Assembly: GCA_965221775.1 (NCBI GenBank)
Contig: CBDCSU010000005.1
Location: 736,001-800,000, forward strand
Length of the DNA stretch: 64,000 bases
Source: Candidatus Latescibacterota bacterium
Lineage (GTDB): Bacteria > Latescibacterota > UBA2968 > UBA8231
Direction: 5' to 3'
Within the stretch, counting starts at the first letter, position 1; the number at the start of each line of letters is the position of its first letter. Made by a program: the position numbers and the translations under genes. Below are positions 58,005 to 64,000 of this stretch, piece by piece. The notes below the pieces were generated by a model. It made no database searches and was not told where the DNA came from. It worked only from the letters and a program-made list of their open reading frames with translations.

Positions 58005-59444
58005 TCAGGGTTGATTCCGGCTGACCAGGAATTGTGACAACAAGGTGAGATTTCGGTTGAAGGTCCGGCAGCTGATGACCTCGGCGGCGATGGGGGCGTT
58101 GCGGTCCTCCGGGTTTCGCAGGCGCCCTTCCTCCAGCCAGCGGCCCTCCTCGTCGAGGGCGTCGACGATCGCCCGGACCCGTTCCTCGGAGACCGGGCGC
58201 ACCCGGGCGCGCTCGGCCAGGATGGCTTCCCGTCCTTCCTCGAGGATGCGCAGGTACAGGCTCTCGATGCGGTCCGTGCGGTTGCCCACCTTGAAGGCAT
58301 AGTGAGTCGGCGGATCCGCGTCGCTGTAGGTGAGGGCGTACTCCCTGGTGAAGTAGAGGGGCCGGTTGGTCTTCAACTCGTAGAACCGGGCCATGCGGCC
58401 ATCGGGCAGCCGCGAGGCCCGGGCCCAGGCCAGGGCCCGGGGGACCGGTTCGAGGAAGCGCGGCTCCCCGAAAGCGAGGTACAGCTCCAGCAGGATCCGC
58501 ATGACGCCGAAACTCTCGCCTCCGGTGATGGCGGGCGGCTCGAAGCGGCGCGCCCAGGCCGGCTCCATGTCGAGGTTGTACTGCTGCGCCCAGGCCGGCT
58601 GGGGATCGGGCATCTGGGCCAGGAGGATGAAGTCGCCGCCCCTCTCGGCGGCGCGGCGCCAGCGGTCGCCGCCGTAGATGTGGTGGGCCTCGATCATGGT
58701 GGCGATGACGTCGGGAATGGTATTGTCGTTGAAAGTGTAGTACGCGAGATAGCGCTCTTTGGGATGCTCCCGTGACCAGCTCTCCGGATAGCGAGCCTTG
58801 CGGACGGGGAACTCGCCGGGGTCGGGACGGCCGCTGTAACGCTGGGGCCAGGCGCCGTTGGGGTACTGGGCCTCAAGCAGCGACTCCAACCCGTAGAGGA
58901 CGGCGCGGTGCAGGTCGGCATCGGCAAAGCCGAGGTGCCTGTCGACCCGCATGAGCATCCGCAGGGCGCTCTGCGTGTTGTCGTCGTCCAGGGTCGAGCG
59001 GTTGCGGCGCTCTCCGGTGGTGGCGTCGCCCTCTTCGACATCGCGCCGGTAGTGCCATTTCCCGCTCGCCGCCGGGTCGAAGTCGATCCGGTAGTCCCAC
59101 CCCCCCGAAGCCAGTTGCCCCCAGGCCAGGGCTCGAGCCGCCTCGACGGCGCCGTCGAGGAAGAGGGTGTCGCCGGTGGCCTCGTACGCCCCGAGGAAGG
59201 CCATGCCCACGGAAGGCGTGCCCGGGGGCTGGACCCAGATGGTGGTGGGCGAGGCGATGCCCTCGCCTTCTCTTCGGGTGAGATCGCTCTTGTAGAGCCA
59301 GAGATAGCCGCCGTTGGCGGCCACATGGCCGCGGAAATACCGCGCCGCCTTGACCATGGTCTCCACGGCGGCTCTGCGCAGGGCCTCGTCGGCTTGGAGC
59401 GCGCTGCCTGACAACAGCAGGACCAGATAAGCGAACAGGTGCAT
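58005..59444 (-). CDS. Pectate lyase PL10 (PelA-like), secreted
   Basis: TLDDDNTQ, QYPNGAWPQ, TFNDN, WAQQY, PAWARRFEP. Confidence 0.82.
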   Translation of the reverse strand: MHLFAYLVLLLSGSALQADEALRRAAVETMVKAARYFRGHVAANGGYLWLYKSDLTRREGEGIASPTTIWVQPPGTPSVGMAFLGAYEATGDTLFLDGAVEAARALAWGQLASGGWDYRIDFDPAASGKWHYRRDVEEGDATTGERRNRSTLDDDNTQSALRMLMRVDRHLGFADADLHRAVLYGLESLLEAQYPNGAWPQRYSGRPDPGEFPVRKARYPESWSREHPKERYLAYYTFNDNTIPDVIATMIEAHHIYGGDRWRRAAERGGDFILLAQMPDPQPAWAQQYNLDMEPAWARRFEPPAITGGESFGVMRILLELYLAFGEPRFLEPVPRALAWARASRLPDGRMARFYELKTNRPLYFTREYALTYSDADPPTHYAFKVGNRTDRIESLYLRILEEGREAILAERARVRPVSEERVRAIVDALDEEGRWLEEGRLRNPEDRNAPIAAEVISCRTFNRNLTLLSQFLVSRNQP

Positions 59445-59619
59445 CCCGTCAGCCTCCTCGTTCTTCGGGAGGGGCCGCCAGAGGCGGCCTGCGCCGGGTG
59501 GACTGGAAGGGGTGGCCGGCCAGGACCGGCGCCTGGCCAGCCGAGGTGTGCCGGCAGGTGACGGCCGGGGACATGGAGACGCGCATGGCCTCTGGTTAGG
59601 CCGCCGTGGTGCCCCGGAG

Positions 59620-60333
59620 CTACGGCCGGCCCGCGGCCTTCAGGGCGCCGGCGAACTCGGCGCTGGTGGAGGTGTAGCCCACCACGTGCTCGAAGTTGCG
59701 CAGCATCACCTTGCGCAGCCACCCGCCCTCCTCGAGGGAGTCGTCGACGGTGTCGGGATACTCCGCCGAGGAGGTGCAGTCGCGCAGCATGATGACGCGG
59801 TAGTTGTGCTCCACCGCGCCGGCGCAGGTGAAGTAGAGGCAGGAGCGCTGCGAGAACCCCACGGCCACCAGGCTCTCTATGCCGTGGCAGCGCAGGTGGT
59901 AGTCGACGTGGGTCTCGTGGAAGCCCGACCACTCGCGCTTGGGGAAGTCGGGCTCGTGGGGCAGGGGCCGGATGGAGGGCGAGTAGTCCGGCTTCACCGG
60001 CTCGCGTGGCGGGGCCCCGCGGCGGCCGGCCTCCGCGTCTCCCCAGCGGGTGCCGTGGATCTCGCGCTTGATGCTGCCGGGCTCGTCGCACAGGGAGAAG
60101 TCGTTGTGGATGTAGATCACGTGCATGCCGGCCTCGCGCGCCGCCGCCAGGGCCGGGGCGATCCCCTCCTCCACGTACGGGTTCCCGGCGCCGCAGTCGC
60201 TGTCGACGATCATGAAGGCGGTGCGCTCCAGCTCCAGGTCCAGGGTGCCGTGGACGAGCCCGTCGTCCCGCGCCTCTCCCTTGTAGTAGCCGGCGCCGCG
60301 GTACCAGCGGACCGGCAGGGCCAGGACCGTCAC
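59620..60333 (-). CDS. Isochorismatase-family cysteine hydrolase
   Basis: MIVD, FPKREWSGF, VGFSQRSCL, LRDCT. GTGA overlap. Confidence 0.8.
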   Translation of the reverse strand: MTVLALPVRWYRGAGYYKGEARDDGLVHGTLDLELERTAFMIVDSDCGAGNPYVEEGIAPALAAAREAGMHVIYIHNDFSLCDEPGSIKREIHGTRWGDAEAGRRGAPPREPVKPDYSPSIRPLPHEPDFPKREWSGFHETHVDYHLRCHGIESLVAVGFSQRSCLYFTCAGAVEHNYRVIMLRDCTSSAEYPDTVDDSLEEGGWLRKVMLRNFEHVVGYTSTSAEFAGALKAAGRP

Positions 60334-61658
60334 CGGAAGACCTCCTTGGGCGGCGAGTTCGGGGGCCAGTAGCCCTCGGCGTCCTCGTCCCACTCGCGGC
60401 CGCACATGCGCGAGATGACCTTCCACTCCGCCGCCGTCAGGTGGCCGTGGTTGTGGAACAGGAAGCGCCGCAGGCCGGCCGCCTCCGAGGCCTCGAGGAT
60501 GCGCTTGAGGTCGCCCGCCGTCATCGGGTCGCCGCGGTGAGGCATGCGGCCCGTGTCGACCCAGGGCAGCACCTTCTCGGGCCGGCTCGCCGCGGCCAGG
60601 GCGCGGCGCGTCTCCTCGGCCACGGTCTCGTCGAAGAAGGCCTGGGGGAAGCCGTGGTCCATGTCGGCCCTGGACTCGACCTCCGGCAGGTCGGTGCCGA
60701 ACCAGGCGCGCACCACGGTGAAGCAGTCGGCCTCGGTCAGCCCCGGGTTCAGCTCCTTCACCTTCTCCACCCAGCGGGTGATGGTGCCGTAGAGGCCGTC
60801 GAAACCGCGCTGCCAGAAGTAGTGCTTCACCAGCATCAGGTCGAGGATCTCGTCCCAGGCGGCGTAGTCGATGCCGGTGATACCGGTGAACATGGCGGTG
60901 CGCAGGCCGTTGCCGAGAAGCAGCTTGCGCGGCAGCCGGTCGACCTCGGCGCGGAACGCCCGGCCCTCGGCGAGGCTCGCCTCGCGGCGCCAGCGCAGCC
61001 AGTGGAGGCCGTCCTCGCGCAGGTCGAAGAGGTTCACGGCCGAGAGCATGCCGTGGTGGCCGTAGTAGCGCACCCGCCGGGGGGTGAGCCGCGAGAACGC
61101 CTCCATCAGTTGACGGCGGCCGTTGTCCAGGCGGTCGGCGTCGTGGCCGGTGGCCTCCGCCCGGCGGCGGTCGGCGGCGGTGAGCTCGCGGAAGACGGCG
61201 CCGTACTCGTAGGGCAGCTCCGCCCAGCCGTCCATGACGCCGCCGTCGGCCTGGGGGAAGGCGCTGAACACGTCCTCCCACACGGCGGCGTGGGACAGGG
61301 CGCCGAAGGGATCGTGCCCGGGAGGTGCCGAGACGCTGTGGGTGCTCTGGCCGGGGCAGAACACGAGCACCGGCCAGCCCCGGCGCTTGACGTCGTCGAG
61401 CATGGCGTGGAGCTGCTTCTCCCGGGCCGCGTCGGGCTCCGCCGAAGCCGGCGCCAGCTCCAGGCCGCGCCGGCGGAAGGGCTCCGGGTCGGGGCGGAAG
61501 GCCGGCACCGTGAACCCGCCCTCGCCGTTGGCGAAGACCAGCCGCCCGAAGACGAGGCCGCGGATGCCGCCCGCGTCCCAGGCGTCGAGGATGCGCTCGT
61601 AGTCGTCGAGGACGTTCTCCAGGGGCTGTCCGATGCGGATCCAGGGTACCAGGGCCAT
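60330..61658 (-). CDS. Conserved hypothetical protein (probable TIM-barrel)
   Basis: Strong codon bias and GGAG SD. Motifs KHYFWQRGFDGLYGT and PWVDTGRMPHRGDP. Confidence 0.75.
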   Translation of the reverse strand: MALVPWIRIGQPLENVLDDYERILDAWDAGGIRGLVFGRLVFANGEGGFTVPAFRPDPEPFRRRGLELAPASAEPDAAREKQLHAMLDDVKRRGWPVLVFCPGQSTHSVSAPPGHDPFGALSHAAVWEDVFSAFPQADGGVMDGWAELPYEYGAVFRELTAADRRRAEATGHDADRLDNGRRQLMEAFSRLTPRRVRYYGHHGMLSAVNLFDLREDGLHWLRWRREASLAEGRAFRAEVDRLPRKLLLGNGLRTAMFTGITGIDYAAWDEILDLMLVKHYFWQRGFDGLYGTITRWVEKVKELNPGLTEADCFTVVRAWFGTDLPEVESRADMDHGFPQAFFDETVAEETRRALAAASRPEKVLPWVDTGRMPHRGDPMTAGDLKRILEASEAAGLRRFLFHNHGHLTAAEWKVISRMCGREWDEDAEGYWPPNSPPKEVFR

Positions 61659-61661
61659 GAT

Positions 61662-62372
61662 CTACTCCCCTCCCGCCACGGCGGTGGAGTCCGCGCCGGC
61701 GGTCGAGTCCGCCATGGCGCCGTACTGCTCCAGCAGCGACAGGCGCTCCTGCCTCTGCTGCCGTCTCCGCTCCGCCAGCTCCAGGCGCTCCAGCTCCTGC
61801 CGCTGGGAGCGGGTGAGGAGCTCCTCGAAACCGGTCCGGTGGCGCTCCTGTAGGTCCTCGTAGTCGTCGGGCGACGGCGGACGGCCTGCCTTCTTGAGGG
61901 CGGCCACCTCCCCGCGCAGCTCCGTAAGCAGCTGCAGCCACTGCCGCCGCTGCTGCGGCGACAGGTAGAGGACGTCCGCCAGCCCCATGGGCTCCAGGTG
62001 CTGTCCGGGATCGAGCCAGCGCTGCCGCTGGTAGCGGCGGGCCCGGTCGATGAGGGCCAGCTGGTCCGCGGTGAGCACCGAGTCCCGCCCCGCCCCGTAG
62101 GCGTCGATCGCCTGGCGGTAGCGCACCCGGCCCCCCCGGGGCGAGATGAGGCCCTCCGCGATCTGGAGGCGCAGCAGGTCGAGCTCCTCCTGCAGGCGCT
62201 GTCTAAGGTCCCGCAGAGACTGCCGCTGGGCGTCGCCGAGGTCGAGGGCCAGAACCAGGCGGCGGTGGAAGTCCTCCCGGAGGCTGTCGGTGTGGGCGGG
62301 GGAGGGCGGCTGTCCCGAGGCCGCGCCGGCGGCGAGGAGGCACAGCGTCAGCAGGCCGGTGAAGGGCCTCAT
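61662..62372 (-). CDS. Hypothetical exported helical protein with LTxxQ-like repeats
   Basis: Signal peptide. LGDAQ, LTADQ, LSPQQ, LTRSQ. Confidence 0.65.
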   Translation of the reverse strand: MRPFTGLLTLCLLAAGAASGQPPSPAHTDSLREDFHRRLVLALDLGDAQRQSLRDLRQRLQEELDLLRLQIAEGLISPRGGRVRYRQAIDAYGAGRDSVLTADQLALIDRARRYQRQRWLDPGQHLEPMGLADVLYLSPQQRRQWLQLLTELRGEVAALKKAGRPPSPDDYEDLQERHRTGFEELLTRSQRQELERLELAERRRQQRQERLSLLEQYGAMADSTAGADSTAVAGGE

Positions 62373-62383
62373 GGGTGAGCGCG

Positions 62384-63253
62384 TCAGACCTCGATGGCCT
62401 GGTCCAGGGCCCGCATGTAACCGACGGTCCACGCCAGCCCCGCCGCCGAGTCGCCGGCGATGGAGGGGTAGTGCTCGGGGTAGACCTGGCCCTTGTAGCC
62501 GATCCGCTTCAAGGCCCGGAAGCAGCCGGCCATGTCGACCTCGCCGGTGCCGAAGGCGACCTCCAGGTAGCCGAGCCGCTCGAAGCGCTCGCGCAGTTCC
62601 GGCGGCACCGGGCCGGCCGGGCGGGTCTCCACGTCGCGGGCGTGGAACATGAAGATGCGGTCCCCGTAGTCGAGGATGTTGGCCACCAGGTCGTCGCCGG
62701 CCATCTGCGACTTGCCCTGGCAGAAGGTGACGCCGGTGTTGGCGCTGGGGGCCTGGTCGAGGAGCCGCGACATCGACTCGTAGTTCCACAACAGGCGGTC
62801 GGGGACGTGGTAGTGATGGGTGGAGACCTTCACCCCCGCCGCCTCGGCGCGCTCGGCCAGGCCGCGGTAGTACTCCACCAGGCCCCGCCACAGGGCGGCG
62901 CGCTCGCCATCGTCGGCGAGGGGGTCGACGTTGAGGTAGAAATGCACATAGGGCACGCCCGCGGTCCCCATCGACTCCAGCAGCCGGCCCATGGACTCCA
63001 GCTCGCGCTCGCGCACCTCGGCGTCGGCGAAGGCCTGCTGGGGCACCCGCGGCGGCGTCAGCGCCGCCAGGGTCACGCCCTCGGCGGCGTACTCTCCGGC
63101 CAGGCGGGCCAGGTACCCCGCGTCCGGCGTAACTTCGTCGCCGGACGCGTCGGAGACGCTCAGCACGATGTGGCGCACCGCCGTGTCGCGGCAGAAGGCC
63201 CGGTTGCGCTCGTGGTCCCTGCCGAAGGGGGCGAAGATTCCGATATCGAGCAT
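62384..63253 (-). CDS. Mannonate dehydratase / xylose-isomerase-like TIM-barrel protein
   Basis: AEAAGVKVSTH, GVTFCQG, IFMFHARD, GEVDM, YPEH. Confidence 0.78.
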   Translation of the reverse strand: MLDIGIFAPFGRDHERNRAFCRDTAVRHIVLSVSDASGDEVTPDAGYLARLAGEYAAEGVTLAALTPPRVPQQAFADAEVRERELESMGRLLESMGTAGVPYVHFYLNVDPLADDGERAALWRGLVEYYRGLAERAEAAGVKVSTHHYHVPDRLLWNYESMSRLLDQAPSANTGVTFCQGKSQMAGDDLVANILDYGDRIFMFHARDVETRPAGPVPPELRERFERLGYLEVAFGTGEVDMAGCFRALKRIGYKGQVYPEHYPSIAGDSAAGLAWTVGYMRALDQAIEV

Positions 63254-63300
63254 GTGTTGAAGGATAGTCACGGCCGAGGGGCGCCGCCGAGGGTTGGCAT

Positions 63301-63332
63301 AAAAAAACCGGCGCGCCGCTGCGACGCGCCGG
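63301..63332 (-). terminator. Rho-independent terminator
   Basis: Stem ccggcgcg/cgcgccgg followed by U7 on the - strand. Confidence 0.85.
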
Positions 63333-63408
63333 GATACCACTTGGGCGCCGGCGAACCGCCGGCGCCGCGCCAGGTGGGCGACCACCTGGACCTACTGAAA
63401 CCGTCAGG

Positions 63409-63447
63409 TCAGGTGGTCGCACCTCCTGCGGGTATACAACTGCTCAC
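63409..63447 (-). CDS. Putative 12-aa peptide MSSCIPAGGATT
   Basis: GTG start 6 nt after the GGAGG core of a 15-nt extended SD. TGA stop lies inside a long hairpin. Confidence 0.4.
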   Translation of the reverse strand: MSSCIPAGGATT

Positions 63448-63652
63448 GGACCACCTCCTTTCGTATCGGCTGCGAGAGCCCTGGACACCGGCACCGGATT
63501 GCGGGGTGCCGCCGCAAGAGTGGGCCCGCGCGCTCATCCCTGGCCCTGCAGCGTTCGCCCGAAGGGCGGGATCAGGGGGCCAGTTGGCATTCTGCCCGGG
63601 GCCGGCGTCCTTCGCCGGCCCAGCGTGCGCGGTGTCGTGTCCGCGCCTCGCT

Positions 63653-63682
63653 AATCTACCTCGCCGCCCGAAACGAAGTCAA
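63653..63682 (-). promoter_or_regulatory. Sigma70-type promoter TTGACT-N18-TAGATT
   Basis: -35 at 63682-63677 and -10 at 63658-63653. Predicted +1 (~63646) coincides with the start of a 5' hairpin. Confidence 0.7.
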
Positions 63683-63701
63683 GAAGTTGTACACTTGGAT
63701 C

Positions 63702-64000
63702 ATGGATCAGAGCGCCCACACCGAGACCGCCATCGTCGGCGGCGGCCTCTGGGGGCTGGCGGCGGCCCACTTCCTGCGCCGGCTGGCCCCGGAGAGCGAG
63801 GTCTCGGTCTTCGAGGCGGCCCCGCGGCCGGGCGGCGCCGTGCGCACCCTTCGCCGCGACGGATTCCTCTTCGACGCCGGGCCCTCCAGCCTCCTCGACA
63901 ACTCCCCCGATCTGCGCCGGCTGCTGGCCGGCACCGGCCTGACCGGGCGACTGATCCAGGCGCGGGAGGCCGCCGCGCGGAACCGCTTCATCGTCCGCGA
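63702..64000 (+). CDS. hemY: Protoporphyrinogen/coproporphyrinogen oxidase (HemY/HemG-type flavoprotein), 3'-truncated
   Basis: IVGGGLWGLAAA FAD motif, VFEAAPRPGGAVRT..DGFLFDAGP, RNRFIV. Confidence 0.8.
   Translation, partial: MDQSAHTETAIVGGGLWGLAAAHFLRRLAPESEVSVFEAAPRPGGAVRTLRRDGFLFDAGPSSLLDNSPDLRRLLAGTGLTGRLIQAREAAARNRFIVR

Follow-up and report, generated by a model that had tools for sequence, protein, structure and literature searches.

A class-wide structured RNA from a Candidatus Latescibacterota genome, with a core laid out as a miniature translation unit

Encoded on the minus strand of a 64,000-nt stretch of DNA from a Candidatus Latescibacterota bacterium (assembly GCA_965221775.1, contig CBDCSU010000005.1, positions 736,001 to 800,000; this whole stretch is called the window) is a structured RNA of about 340-345 nt. 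The RNA is a real, expressed gene of its own, strongly conserved, with a conserved fold and with a short open reading frame (mini-ORF) that is constrained in start, stop and length. The conserved core is built like a small translation unit, not like the message for a protein, and, judged from sequence comparison, selection seems to act on translation of the mini-ORF rather than on its peptide. What is new is a divergent form of a known, functionally unexplained type of small RNA (sRNA), where the type itself has already been recorded in Actinobacteria, as Ms_IGR-5 (RF02471), and in Caulobacter, as CC2171 (RF01867). The phenomenon is also more general than the original prediction, made from the letters of the window, could show. 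With a confidence a little above even, we propose that the RNA engages ribosomes and acts in cis through translation of its mini-ORF.

All coordinates of the element refer to the minus strand of the window unless stated otherwise, and the families of its class are designated f1 to f4. Two Shine-Dalgarno (SD) sequences, SD1 and SD2, occur among its parts, which are, from 5' to 3':

63682-63653 (-): promoter, with a -35 box TTGACT (63682-63677), an 18-nt spacer and a -10 box TAGATT (63658-63653).
63646-63471 (-): 5' structured domain of about 175 nt, with hairpins at 63646-63627, 63621-63599, 63583-63540 and 63511-63489.
63462-63448 (-): SD1, GAAAGGAGGTGGTCC, 15 nt complementary to the 3' tail of the organism's own 16S ribosomal RNA (rRNA), with one G-U pair.
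63447-63409 (-): mini-ORF, with a GTG start, 11 more sense codons (SSCIPAGGATT) and a TGA stop (63411-63409).
63435-63431 (-): strand B, AUACC, in codons 5-6, which pairs with strand F and closes a three-way junction.
63427-63421 (-): SD2, the internal AGGAGGT, which ends 10 nt before the stop.
63420-63378 (-): long hairpin, with a 5' arm r2, GCGACCACCUGACCU, holding the stop codon, and a 3' arm r3, AGGUCCAGGUGGUCGC.
63377-63370 (-): r4, CCACCUGG, an anti-SD-like strand that families f3 and f4 lack.
63366-63344 (-): variable hairpin E, absent in loci L006-L009 and longer in other subgroups.
63338-63334 (-): strand F, GGUAU, which pairs with strand B and lies one nt before the terminator hairpin.
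63332-63301 (-): intrinsic terminator, an 11-bp G+C-rich hairpin (63332-63308) followed by U7 (63307-63301).

By BLAST, 15 of 24 further genomes of the family have the region, as against none of 16 from other families of the class; its 3' 175 nt (SD, ORF, hairpins and terminator) are the best-conserved part. When one genome per species was scanned with a pattern, 21 species were returned, all of them metagenome-assembled genomes with the label Gemmatimonadetes/Gemmatimonadaceae or Candidatus Latescibacterota. A covariance model, for which 22 distinct sequences were used, reaches further: it finds the element, mostly in single copy, in 69 of 76 genomes of the family, including all 12 of high quality and 17 of 18 genera, and in 101 of 132 genomes of the class (f1 68/75, f3 3/3, f4 8/22, f2 21/31). 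Among 36 genomes from ten other families of the phylum there is one match, a weak one. The structure and the SD, looked for at homologous loci, are conserved across the class.

The 16S gene of the genome terminates in GGATCACCTCCTTTCT, and the 15-nt pairing with one G-U that had been proposed for SD1 on a consensus 16S end is borne out on the organism's own tail. Pairing of at least 15 nt with this tail, with G-U allowed, occurs at 6 of the 32,801 GGAGG sites in the genome, one of which is the 16S gene itself. In all sequences that were read, i.e., those of the 22-sequence alignment and the relatives in the class, GAAAGGAGGTGGT is invariant, as are the first 13 nt of SD1. The reading frame GTG-SSCIPAGGATT-TGA and its inner AGGAGGT lie where the original prediction had placed them, and an ORF of 9-12 codons is kept in 38 of 38 distinct sequences of the class. 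In these 38 sequences the start lies 6-8 nt past GGAGG (in one case 11 nt) and is always a start-competent codon (TTG 21, GTG 11, ATG 6), while the stop (TGA 35, TAA 2, TAG 1) has a fixed place in the hairpin arm, and the ORF lengths of 9, 10, 11 and 12 codons all preserve the frame. The inner GGAGG-like motif is separated from the stop by 9 nt in 27 of the sequences and by 10 nt in the other 11. A spacing of 6-7 nt between an SD and the P-site codon is that of the initiation complex, and with the stop codon in the A site SD2 would sit 6-7 nt behind the P-site codon.

The peptides, on the other hand, diverge across the class, where MSSCIPAGGATT, MSSNCTAGRLIT, MKHTTIRRWTA, MQSTTRRWVV and MSEMTSGGGCR are all found. 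Their C-terminal halves are dictated by the nucleotides of the inner SD and of the hairpin arm, and the GGAGG motif is read in three frames depending on lineage (GGA GGT, AGG AGG and GAG GTG). Since the peptides diverge while SD2 and the arm are read in different frames, selection seems to be on the translation of the ORF and not on its product.

This bears directly on the first of four rival explanations (micropeptide, antisense sRNA, protein sponge and leader), each of which conflicts with at least one tested feature. If the locus were a micropeptide gene, the 11-12-residue peptide would be the effector and the RNA a highly structured mRNA. Conservation of the ORF with its SD, start, stop and in-frame length changes would be expected from such a gene, as would the recurrence of an M-S-S start in family f1, where L009 swaps the Ser codon AGT for TCA, and that of the residues C-E-V in Ms_IGR-5-like sequences. 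It is harder to reconcile with peptides that are wholly different between families of one class, with a C-terminal half that follows from the nucleotides of SD2 and r2, and with a GGAGG kept as nucleotides across three reading frames, which tells against the micropeptide option of the original prediction as well. Furthermore, G or C is the last letter of only 6 of the 12 sense codons, to be compared with a G+C content at third codon positions (GC3) of 0.94-0.96 in the neighbouring genes. We judge this explanation unlikely. Judged by the peptide, the type-I-toxin-like mRNA that had also been suggested is not supported: the 11 residues after Met are neither hydrophobic nor conserved across the class, where the peptides are polar and have 9-12 residues, whereas type I toxins are hydrophobic peptides of some tens of residues. 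As a side observation, the mini-ORF contains codons that are rare for the genome (AGT, TGT, ATA, GCA, GGA and GGT); the figure of 6 out of 12 given above is a hand count. In a rough genome-wide SD profile, which is not used as evidence, GGAG is modestly raised at positions -12 to -9 relative to candidate starts.

The minimum free energy (MFE) of the element is -196.3 kcal/mol, compared with -174.0 +/- 5.9 for dinucleotide shuffles (z = -3.76; 0 of 100 as low), and the chain of hairpins described in the original prediction is recovered in the MFE fold. The structure that we propose for the 3' part consists of the r2:r3 hairpin with the stop codon, the variable hairpin E, the terminator and the long-range helix B:F. 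On a plain MAFFT alignment this structure has 9 pairs with changes on both sides, where shuffles give 3.8 +/- 1.3. When 38 sequences are aligned with the model, changes on both sides occur in 29 of 39 pairs, with 91.4% of the cells paired, which should be compared with 16.4 +/- 1.9 for shuffles (0 of 500 as high) and 10-15 for slid controls. In this model-guided alignment the 29 pairs are distributed over r2:r3 (9 of 15), B:F (5 of 5), helices 3-5 in the region of hairpin E (9 of 9) and the terminator stem (6 of 10, with 99.2% of the cells paired). Compensatory changes at the base of the r2:r3 helix are present also on the plain alignment, and the long-range helix B:F can be read in the raw sequences as ATACC/GGTAT, TGTAC/GTACA and CGCA/TGCG. 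The strand r4 either extends the long hairpin by pairing with SD2 (GGUG:CACC is possible) or can form a small r3:r4 hairpin, and the MFE fold pairs GG of SD2 with CC of r4. By this fold, the ground state leaves SD1 and the start codon free and holds the remainder of the ORF, SD2 and the stop codon in the three-way junction.

The 5' domain is an accessory part. In the window about 175-185 nt of structured RNA lie 5' of SD1, and an alignment fold of the domain from 13 relatives has 25 predicted pairs, 7 of them with compensatory changes. The domain differs among subgroups, and in genus g17 it is missing, so that the -10 box is found about 12 nt before the SD. A hammerhead-like CUGAUGA in this domain was considered and dropped, as it is not conserved in the window itself.

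A second way of pairing the 3' domain exists, in which GACCACCT (63418-63411) pairs with the SD instead of with 63389-63380. The energy of the domain is -93.7 kcal/mol with r2:r3 and -87.4 kcal/mol with SD1:r2 forced, a preference of 6.3 kcal/mol for the former. In the energy model the nascent RNA folds SD1:r2 first, and the complete 3' domain then favours r2:r3, by which SD1 is freed. RNAalifold proposes SD:r2 and r3:r4, and covariation sought in these pairings was not found. Of the anti-SD switch that had been predicted, the two mutually exclusive folds therefore exist thermodynamically, but covariation does not support the pairing of the SD with GACCACCT. Such a switch is possible within the element's own family; it is not the conserved feature.

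The same strands form the basis of a second rival, a trans-acting sRNA in which anti-SD-like CCACCU strands or loops would pair with the ribosome-binding sites of target mRNAs, and the ORF would be incidental or stabilising. The gene has the layout of an sRNA gene, with its own promoter and terminator, it has two CCACCU-type segments, and its relatives Ms_IGR-5 and CC2171 are filed as sRNAs. In the conserved fold, however, the anti-SD-like strands are engaged in pairs, and r4 is lacking in f3 and f4. Nor would an ORF that is incidental maintain start-competent codons, stops of three kinds in one place and in-frame lengths. This explanation, too, has a low probability in our estimate. Still less probable, indeed very unlikely, is a protein sponge, i.e., a decoy for a CsrA-like binder of GGA or SD-like motifs, or for a protein that recognises the 16S tail. 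Such a decoy could make use of the two GGA-containing motifs, with about 31 nt between them, and of the hairpin with its likeness to an SD/anti-SD duplex, but the CsrA domain (PF02599) was not found in the organism's own genome, which is 96.8% complete, the GGA sites are just two, and the 13-nt invariance fits the 16S tail exactly and not a short protein motif. HPF and bS21 are present in the genome, so there is no sign of a missing protein hibernation factor.

That the RNA is transcribed on its own can be seen from the locus, from its relatives and from RNA data. The element lies between two divergent genes that are about 450 nt apart, an FAD/NAD-binding amine-oxidase-like gene on the plus strand from 63702 and a xylose-isomerase-like TIM-barrel gene on the minus strand from 63253. 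Within 62000-64000, TTGACT-N18-TAGATT is the sole sigma-70-like site (50 shuffles give 0.0 +/- 0.1), and the terminator hairpin with T7 is the sole terminator-like site (shuffles 0.3 +/- 0.6), as the original prediction of a promoter and a terminator at 63682-63301 would have it. The separate -10 box that had been assigned to the gene at 63253 did not appear: the scan of 62000-64000 has no promoter-like site for that gene. Of 23 distinct loci, 20 have a match to a promoter expression of the form TTGAC-N15-21-TAnA[TA]T on the 5' side of the element. Among the 15 loci that were collected first, conservation of the upstream oxidase gene does not go beyond the genus. The gene downstream is another one in L006-L008 and has the opposite orientation in L009, L011, L012, L013 and L015, i.e., it is different or convergent in 8 of the 15. 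From this we conclude that the RNA is not a leader, and the varying downstream genes together with the recurring promoter bear out the independent transcript that had been predicted. The window from 58694 to 64000 also has long overlapping ORFs in several frames and on both strands (59620-61941, 60441-61853 and 61662-63422), a pattern typical of a genome with 70% G+C, and most of them are unlikely to be genes.

At the RNA level, metatranscriptome contigs from three runs (X1, X2 and X5) extend from 63423, 63430 and 63455 to 63637 or 63639 with word depths of 89.6, 24.8 and 103.8, and thus document 63423-63639 with empty flanks, the depth being 0 on both flanking genes. They have no letters that differ from the window except one inserted C, which also occurs in sister genomes, and the contig of one run enters sequencing adapter at 63639. 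That the contigs stop inside or just before the mini-ORF and give no cover of 63422-63301 could be due to assembly, to reverse-transcription bias on G+C-rich hairpins or to processing. A low-depth contig from a second study (X4), with 13 other letters, spans the neighbouring gene and is not used as evidence. The weakest of the rivals, a cis-acting leader or attenuator of the xylose-isomerase-like gene, where read-through of the terminator would be governed by a leader peptide and by alternative hairpins, is suggested by the short ORF, by the mutually exclusive helices, by a terminator 47 nt upstream of a gene on the same strand and by the promoter scan just described, but is barely credible, since the downstream gene varies as listed above, the alternative helices do not overlap the terminator stem, and the ORF has no run of one regulatory codon.

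Second matches in six genomes of the family (L090-L095, in G054, G043, G017, G088, G089 and G021) reveal a paralogous small RNA with the same layout. Its ORF has 10 codons (e.g., MTAILWRCRV and MEPNTWRCAV), and TGGAGGTG lies 9 nt before the stop, followed by a hairpin and a terminator. The 5' region is distinct, and upstream of it is a motif, GTGCATCC, in common with the f3 and f4 forms (L070-L076), which may be a different type of promoter. Another variant is L014 (G023:C2, about 1480-1580), the sole match in its genome (E = 1.8e-6), which retains promoter, SD, mini-ORF and r2 and then diverges. A long ORF, for which a Pfam search gave no family, starts about 90 nt past its SD, and L014 may have been recruited as a leader or may be a copy in decay.

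We now turn to the relation with known RNA families. At gathering cut-offs, Rfam has no match in the whole window, and to this extent the element is undescribed, as had been suggested. Below these cut-offs, Ms_IGR-5 and CC2171 align at full length to this very element and strand, and this likeness, with the layout that the RNAs have in common, takes away from that suggestion. Ms_IGR-5 on 63303-63466 (-) scores 15.2 bits (E = 0.4; gathering cut-off 45), and on relatives of the same class in g17 it scores 39.5 and 39.1 bits, also below 45. For CC2171 the window scores 15.5 bits and L088 29.1 bits, below its gathering cut-off of 75. The RNA is not a member of RF02471 or RF01867, because it fails the score test.

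The consensus of Ms_IGR-5 starts ACACAaGGAAGGAgGugGuCc and includes GUGAGGUGgCugCccGCuaG, and at least 115 loci were found when metagenomes were scanned with the 20-nt motif at the 5' side of the g17 form. The following counts are among the matches listed. The Ms_IGR-5 model matches 18 of 18 tested metagenome loci that share the motif, 15 of them above the cut-off and up to 163 bits. An SD-led ORF is present in 78 of 83 distinct Ms_IGR-5-like sequences, 73 of them with 11-13 codons, with TTG (67), ATG (7) or GTG (4) as start and TAG (72), TGA (3) or TAA (3) as stop, and in 72 sequences an inner GAGG lies 11 nt before the stop. As judged by eye, this inner SD forms pairs through its 3' half with a CCACC strand further downstream, and the pairs show compensatory changes (e.g., GGCTGC/GCAGCC, GGCTAC/GTAGCC and GGTGACC/GGTCACC). 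The RNA of the window thus has the layout of bona fide Ms_IGR-5 RNAs: both types have the extended SD AAGGAGGUGGUC(C), which in the window is SD1, a short SD-led ORF, with mostly a TTG start in Ms_IGR-5, an inner GAGGUGG that lies 9-11 nt ahead of the stop and of which the 3' half is bound by a CCACC strand downstream, and stand-alone transcription. To the common description of an 11-13-codon ORF with an inner GAGG or GGAGG 9-11 nt before the stop, which is our own, the window corresponds with 12 codons and 10 nt.

The two types also differ. Here about 175 nt of extra 5' structure precede the SD, which in Ms_IGR-5 comes about 15 nt past the -10 box; in the Ms_IGR-5-like loci a -10-like TACGGT is found about 8 nt before ACACAAG, and in that family the SD should lie within about 10-15 nt of the 5' end of the transcript, which it does not in the window. 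The spacer between SD and start is 6 nt here and mostly 12 nt there, the stop is TGA here and TAG there, the frame over the internal SD is another one, and the phylum is not the same. The likeness to CC2171 concerns the ends of its consensus, which opens with the full complement of the 16S tail followed by GUG and closes with a G+C-rich terminator hairpin.

Some variants among the Ms_IGR-5-like loci deserve separate mention. In the metagenome contigs L106, L122, L153 and L172 the Ms_IGR-5 5' end (SD, TTG ATA GC...) runs into an ORF of 17-24 codons instead of the usual 12 (e.g., ...QGIRGQTPTL), with two such copies about 6 kb apart in L106 and two Ms_IGR-5 matches in L172. L116 and L161 have TTTCGA for TTTTGA, by which the usual TTG start is lost while the rest of the RNA is kept, and they are natural start-codon mutants.

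Ms_IGR-5 has been detected in Streptomyces lividans and S. avermitilis (PMC8079986, PMC8780764) and is called "validated but yet uncharacterized" in M. smegmatis (bioRxiv 10.1101/2021.12.14.472595), while CC2171 has been validated by Northern blot in Methylorubrum, where the condition affecting it is reported as not known (bioRxiv 10.1101/2022.01.24.477521). A literature search found no description of the layout with a mini-ORF and a double SD, though supplements might list the Ms_IGR-5 mini-ORF among short ORFs from ribosome profiling, and a search on structured RNAs of these phyla found no paper naming them. By its layout the RNA belongs with Ms_IGR-5 of Actinobacteria, and probably with CC2171 of Alphaproteobacteria, as a divergent branch with an added 5' domain. 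For the class as a whole, common descent with Ms_IGR-5 and CC2171 is likely, not proven.

To see how a ribosome-engaging RNA of this kind could work in cis, consider the six parts of its core in order. SD1 is single-stranded and complementary to the whole free 3' tail of the 16S rRNA; it is followed by a mostly weak start codon (GTG or TTG), by an ORF of 9-12 codons with an unconserved peptide, by SD2, at a distance from the stop that would leave it 6-7 nt behind the P-site codon once the A site is occupied by the stop, by a stop codon in the 5' arm of a stable hairpin, the arms of which resemble an SD/anti-SD duplex, and by an intrinsic terminator. Folding locks codons 5-6, SD2 and the stop into the three-way junction and leaves SD1 and the start codon free. 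A 30S subunit would dock on SD1. Translation of the mini-ORF would then have to unwind the junction, a terminating ribosome could pair again, now with SD2, and the released anti-SD-like strands could pair elsewhere, e.g., with SD1. The RNA would in this way engage ribosomes in cis, and its shape would report, or be set by, translation. Candidate outputs are holding of ribosomes, sensing of translation capacity, control of the RNA's own stability and exposure of other segments.

A wider proposal, which we put forward tentatively and with a small though not negligible chance of being right, is that Ms_IGR-5, CC2171 and the class-wide RNA are branches of one ancient cross-phylum class of ribosome-engaging RNAs. 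These would grip the 16S 3' tail twice, by SD1 at initiation and by SD2, released from its SD/anti-SD mimic helix, at termination, and would park ribosomes or gauge free ones as a sensor or buffer of translation capacity, rather than act as message or antisense regulator.

Several points weigh against a ribosome-engaging RNA and against its kinship with the Rfam families. Ribosome binding is something we infer solely from the invariant 13-nt SD and the conserved ORF, and translation and the remodelling of the RNA are of the same kind. Sequences within the family are near-alike, so that much of the retention of the ORF there is inheritance, and the argument from the frame is carried by a few changes in length that arose independently. 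The count of 29 out of 39 pairs comes from a structure-fitted alignment, which leans towards the structure, the alternative SD1:r2 has no covariation, and in f3, where r2 and r3 covary, SD1:r2 decays to mostly G-U pairs. The RNA contigs come from a single study and end at 63423, 63430 and 63455, which leaves the 3' third uncovered, and they show neither true transcript ends nor levels. As for kinship, the link of the window to Ms_IGR-5 and CC2171 is below the Rfam cut-offs, and convergence is possible, since the shared SD is constrained by the 16S tail. Five of the 83 Ms_IGR-5-like sequences among the matches listed have no ORF, and the recurrence of C-E-V leaves a role for the peptide there. 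Our own model finds 26 of 60 sources of Ms_IGR-5 loci at E <= 0.01, a biased number, as these loci were chosen by their SD, and one that we do not use.

Ms_IGR-5 and CC2171 have been in Rfam for over a decade without a function, though they are expressed in Mycobacterium smegmatis, Streptomyces and Caulobacter, and the RNA of the window offers them a common, testable reading. All three RNAs carry a near-complete complement of the 16S tail, and Ms_IGR-5 and the RNA of this class have in addition a mini-ORF with a drifting peptide and a second SD at a kept distance from the stop. If the reading is true, a widespread housekeeping RNA would work through direct ribosome engagement. The results also add a well-supported structured RNA family, present in nearly every genome of the family that was searched, to an uncultured marine lineage without genetics.

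Other systems can be compared more briefly. The 6S family was not found in the genome by a search that detects 6S in just 5 of 14 control genomes and so carries little weight, and BLAST of the 3' domain against plasmids gave no match. Selenocysteine read-through at UGA was rejected, as the stop is TAA or TAG in some relatives, as was frameshifting of the RF2 type, for its wrong spacing and because each of the three stops is found. Hopping of the ribosome between the ACC of r2 and that of r4 was rejected because f3 and f4 have no r4 and a conserved frame does not come after it, and re-initiation at an ORF past the stop because there is no conserved start.

The mRNA-like domain of transfer-messenger RNA (tmRNA) belongs to a housekeeping structured RNA and has a short reading frame with its stop in a helix. 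The present RNA resembles it in both the frame and the placing of the stop, but has an SD and a start codon and lacks a tRNA-like domain. ARAGORN finds no gene in 62000-64000, Rfam is negative, and the tmRNA of the genome is elsewhere on the contig (C5:849294-849659), in agreement with the original prediction that the RNA is not tmRNA. Leader-peptide attenuators of the trp and thr type have a short translated ORF, competing helices and an intrinsic terminator, as this RNA has, but here there is no conserved downstream gene, the competing helices exclude the terminator, and diagnostic codon runs are absent. By analogy, finally, the RNA may be likened to the SD-like stabilisers at the 5' ends of Bacillus mRNAs and to the SD at the RF2 frameshift site, which pair with 16S rRNA outside ordinary initiation. 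Those sequences are parts of mRNAs for real proteins, whereas in the present RNA the spacing of 9-10 nt to the stop would suit anchoring.

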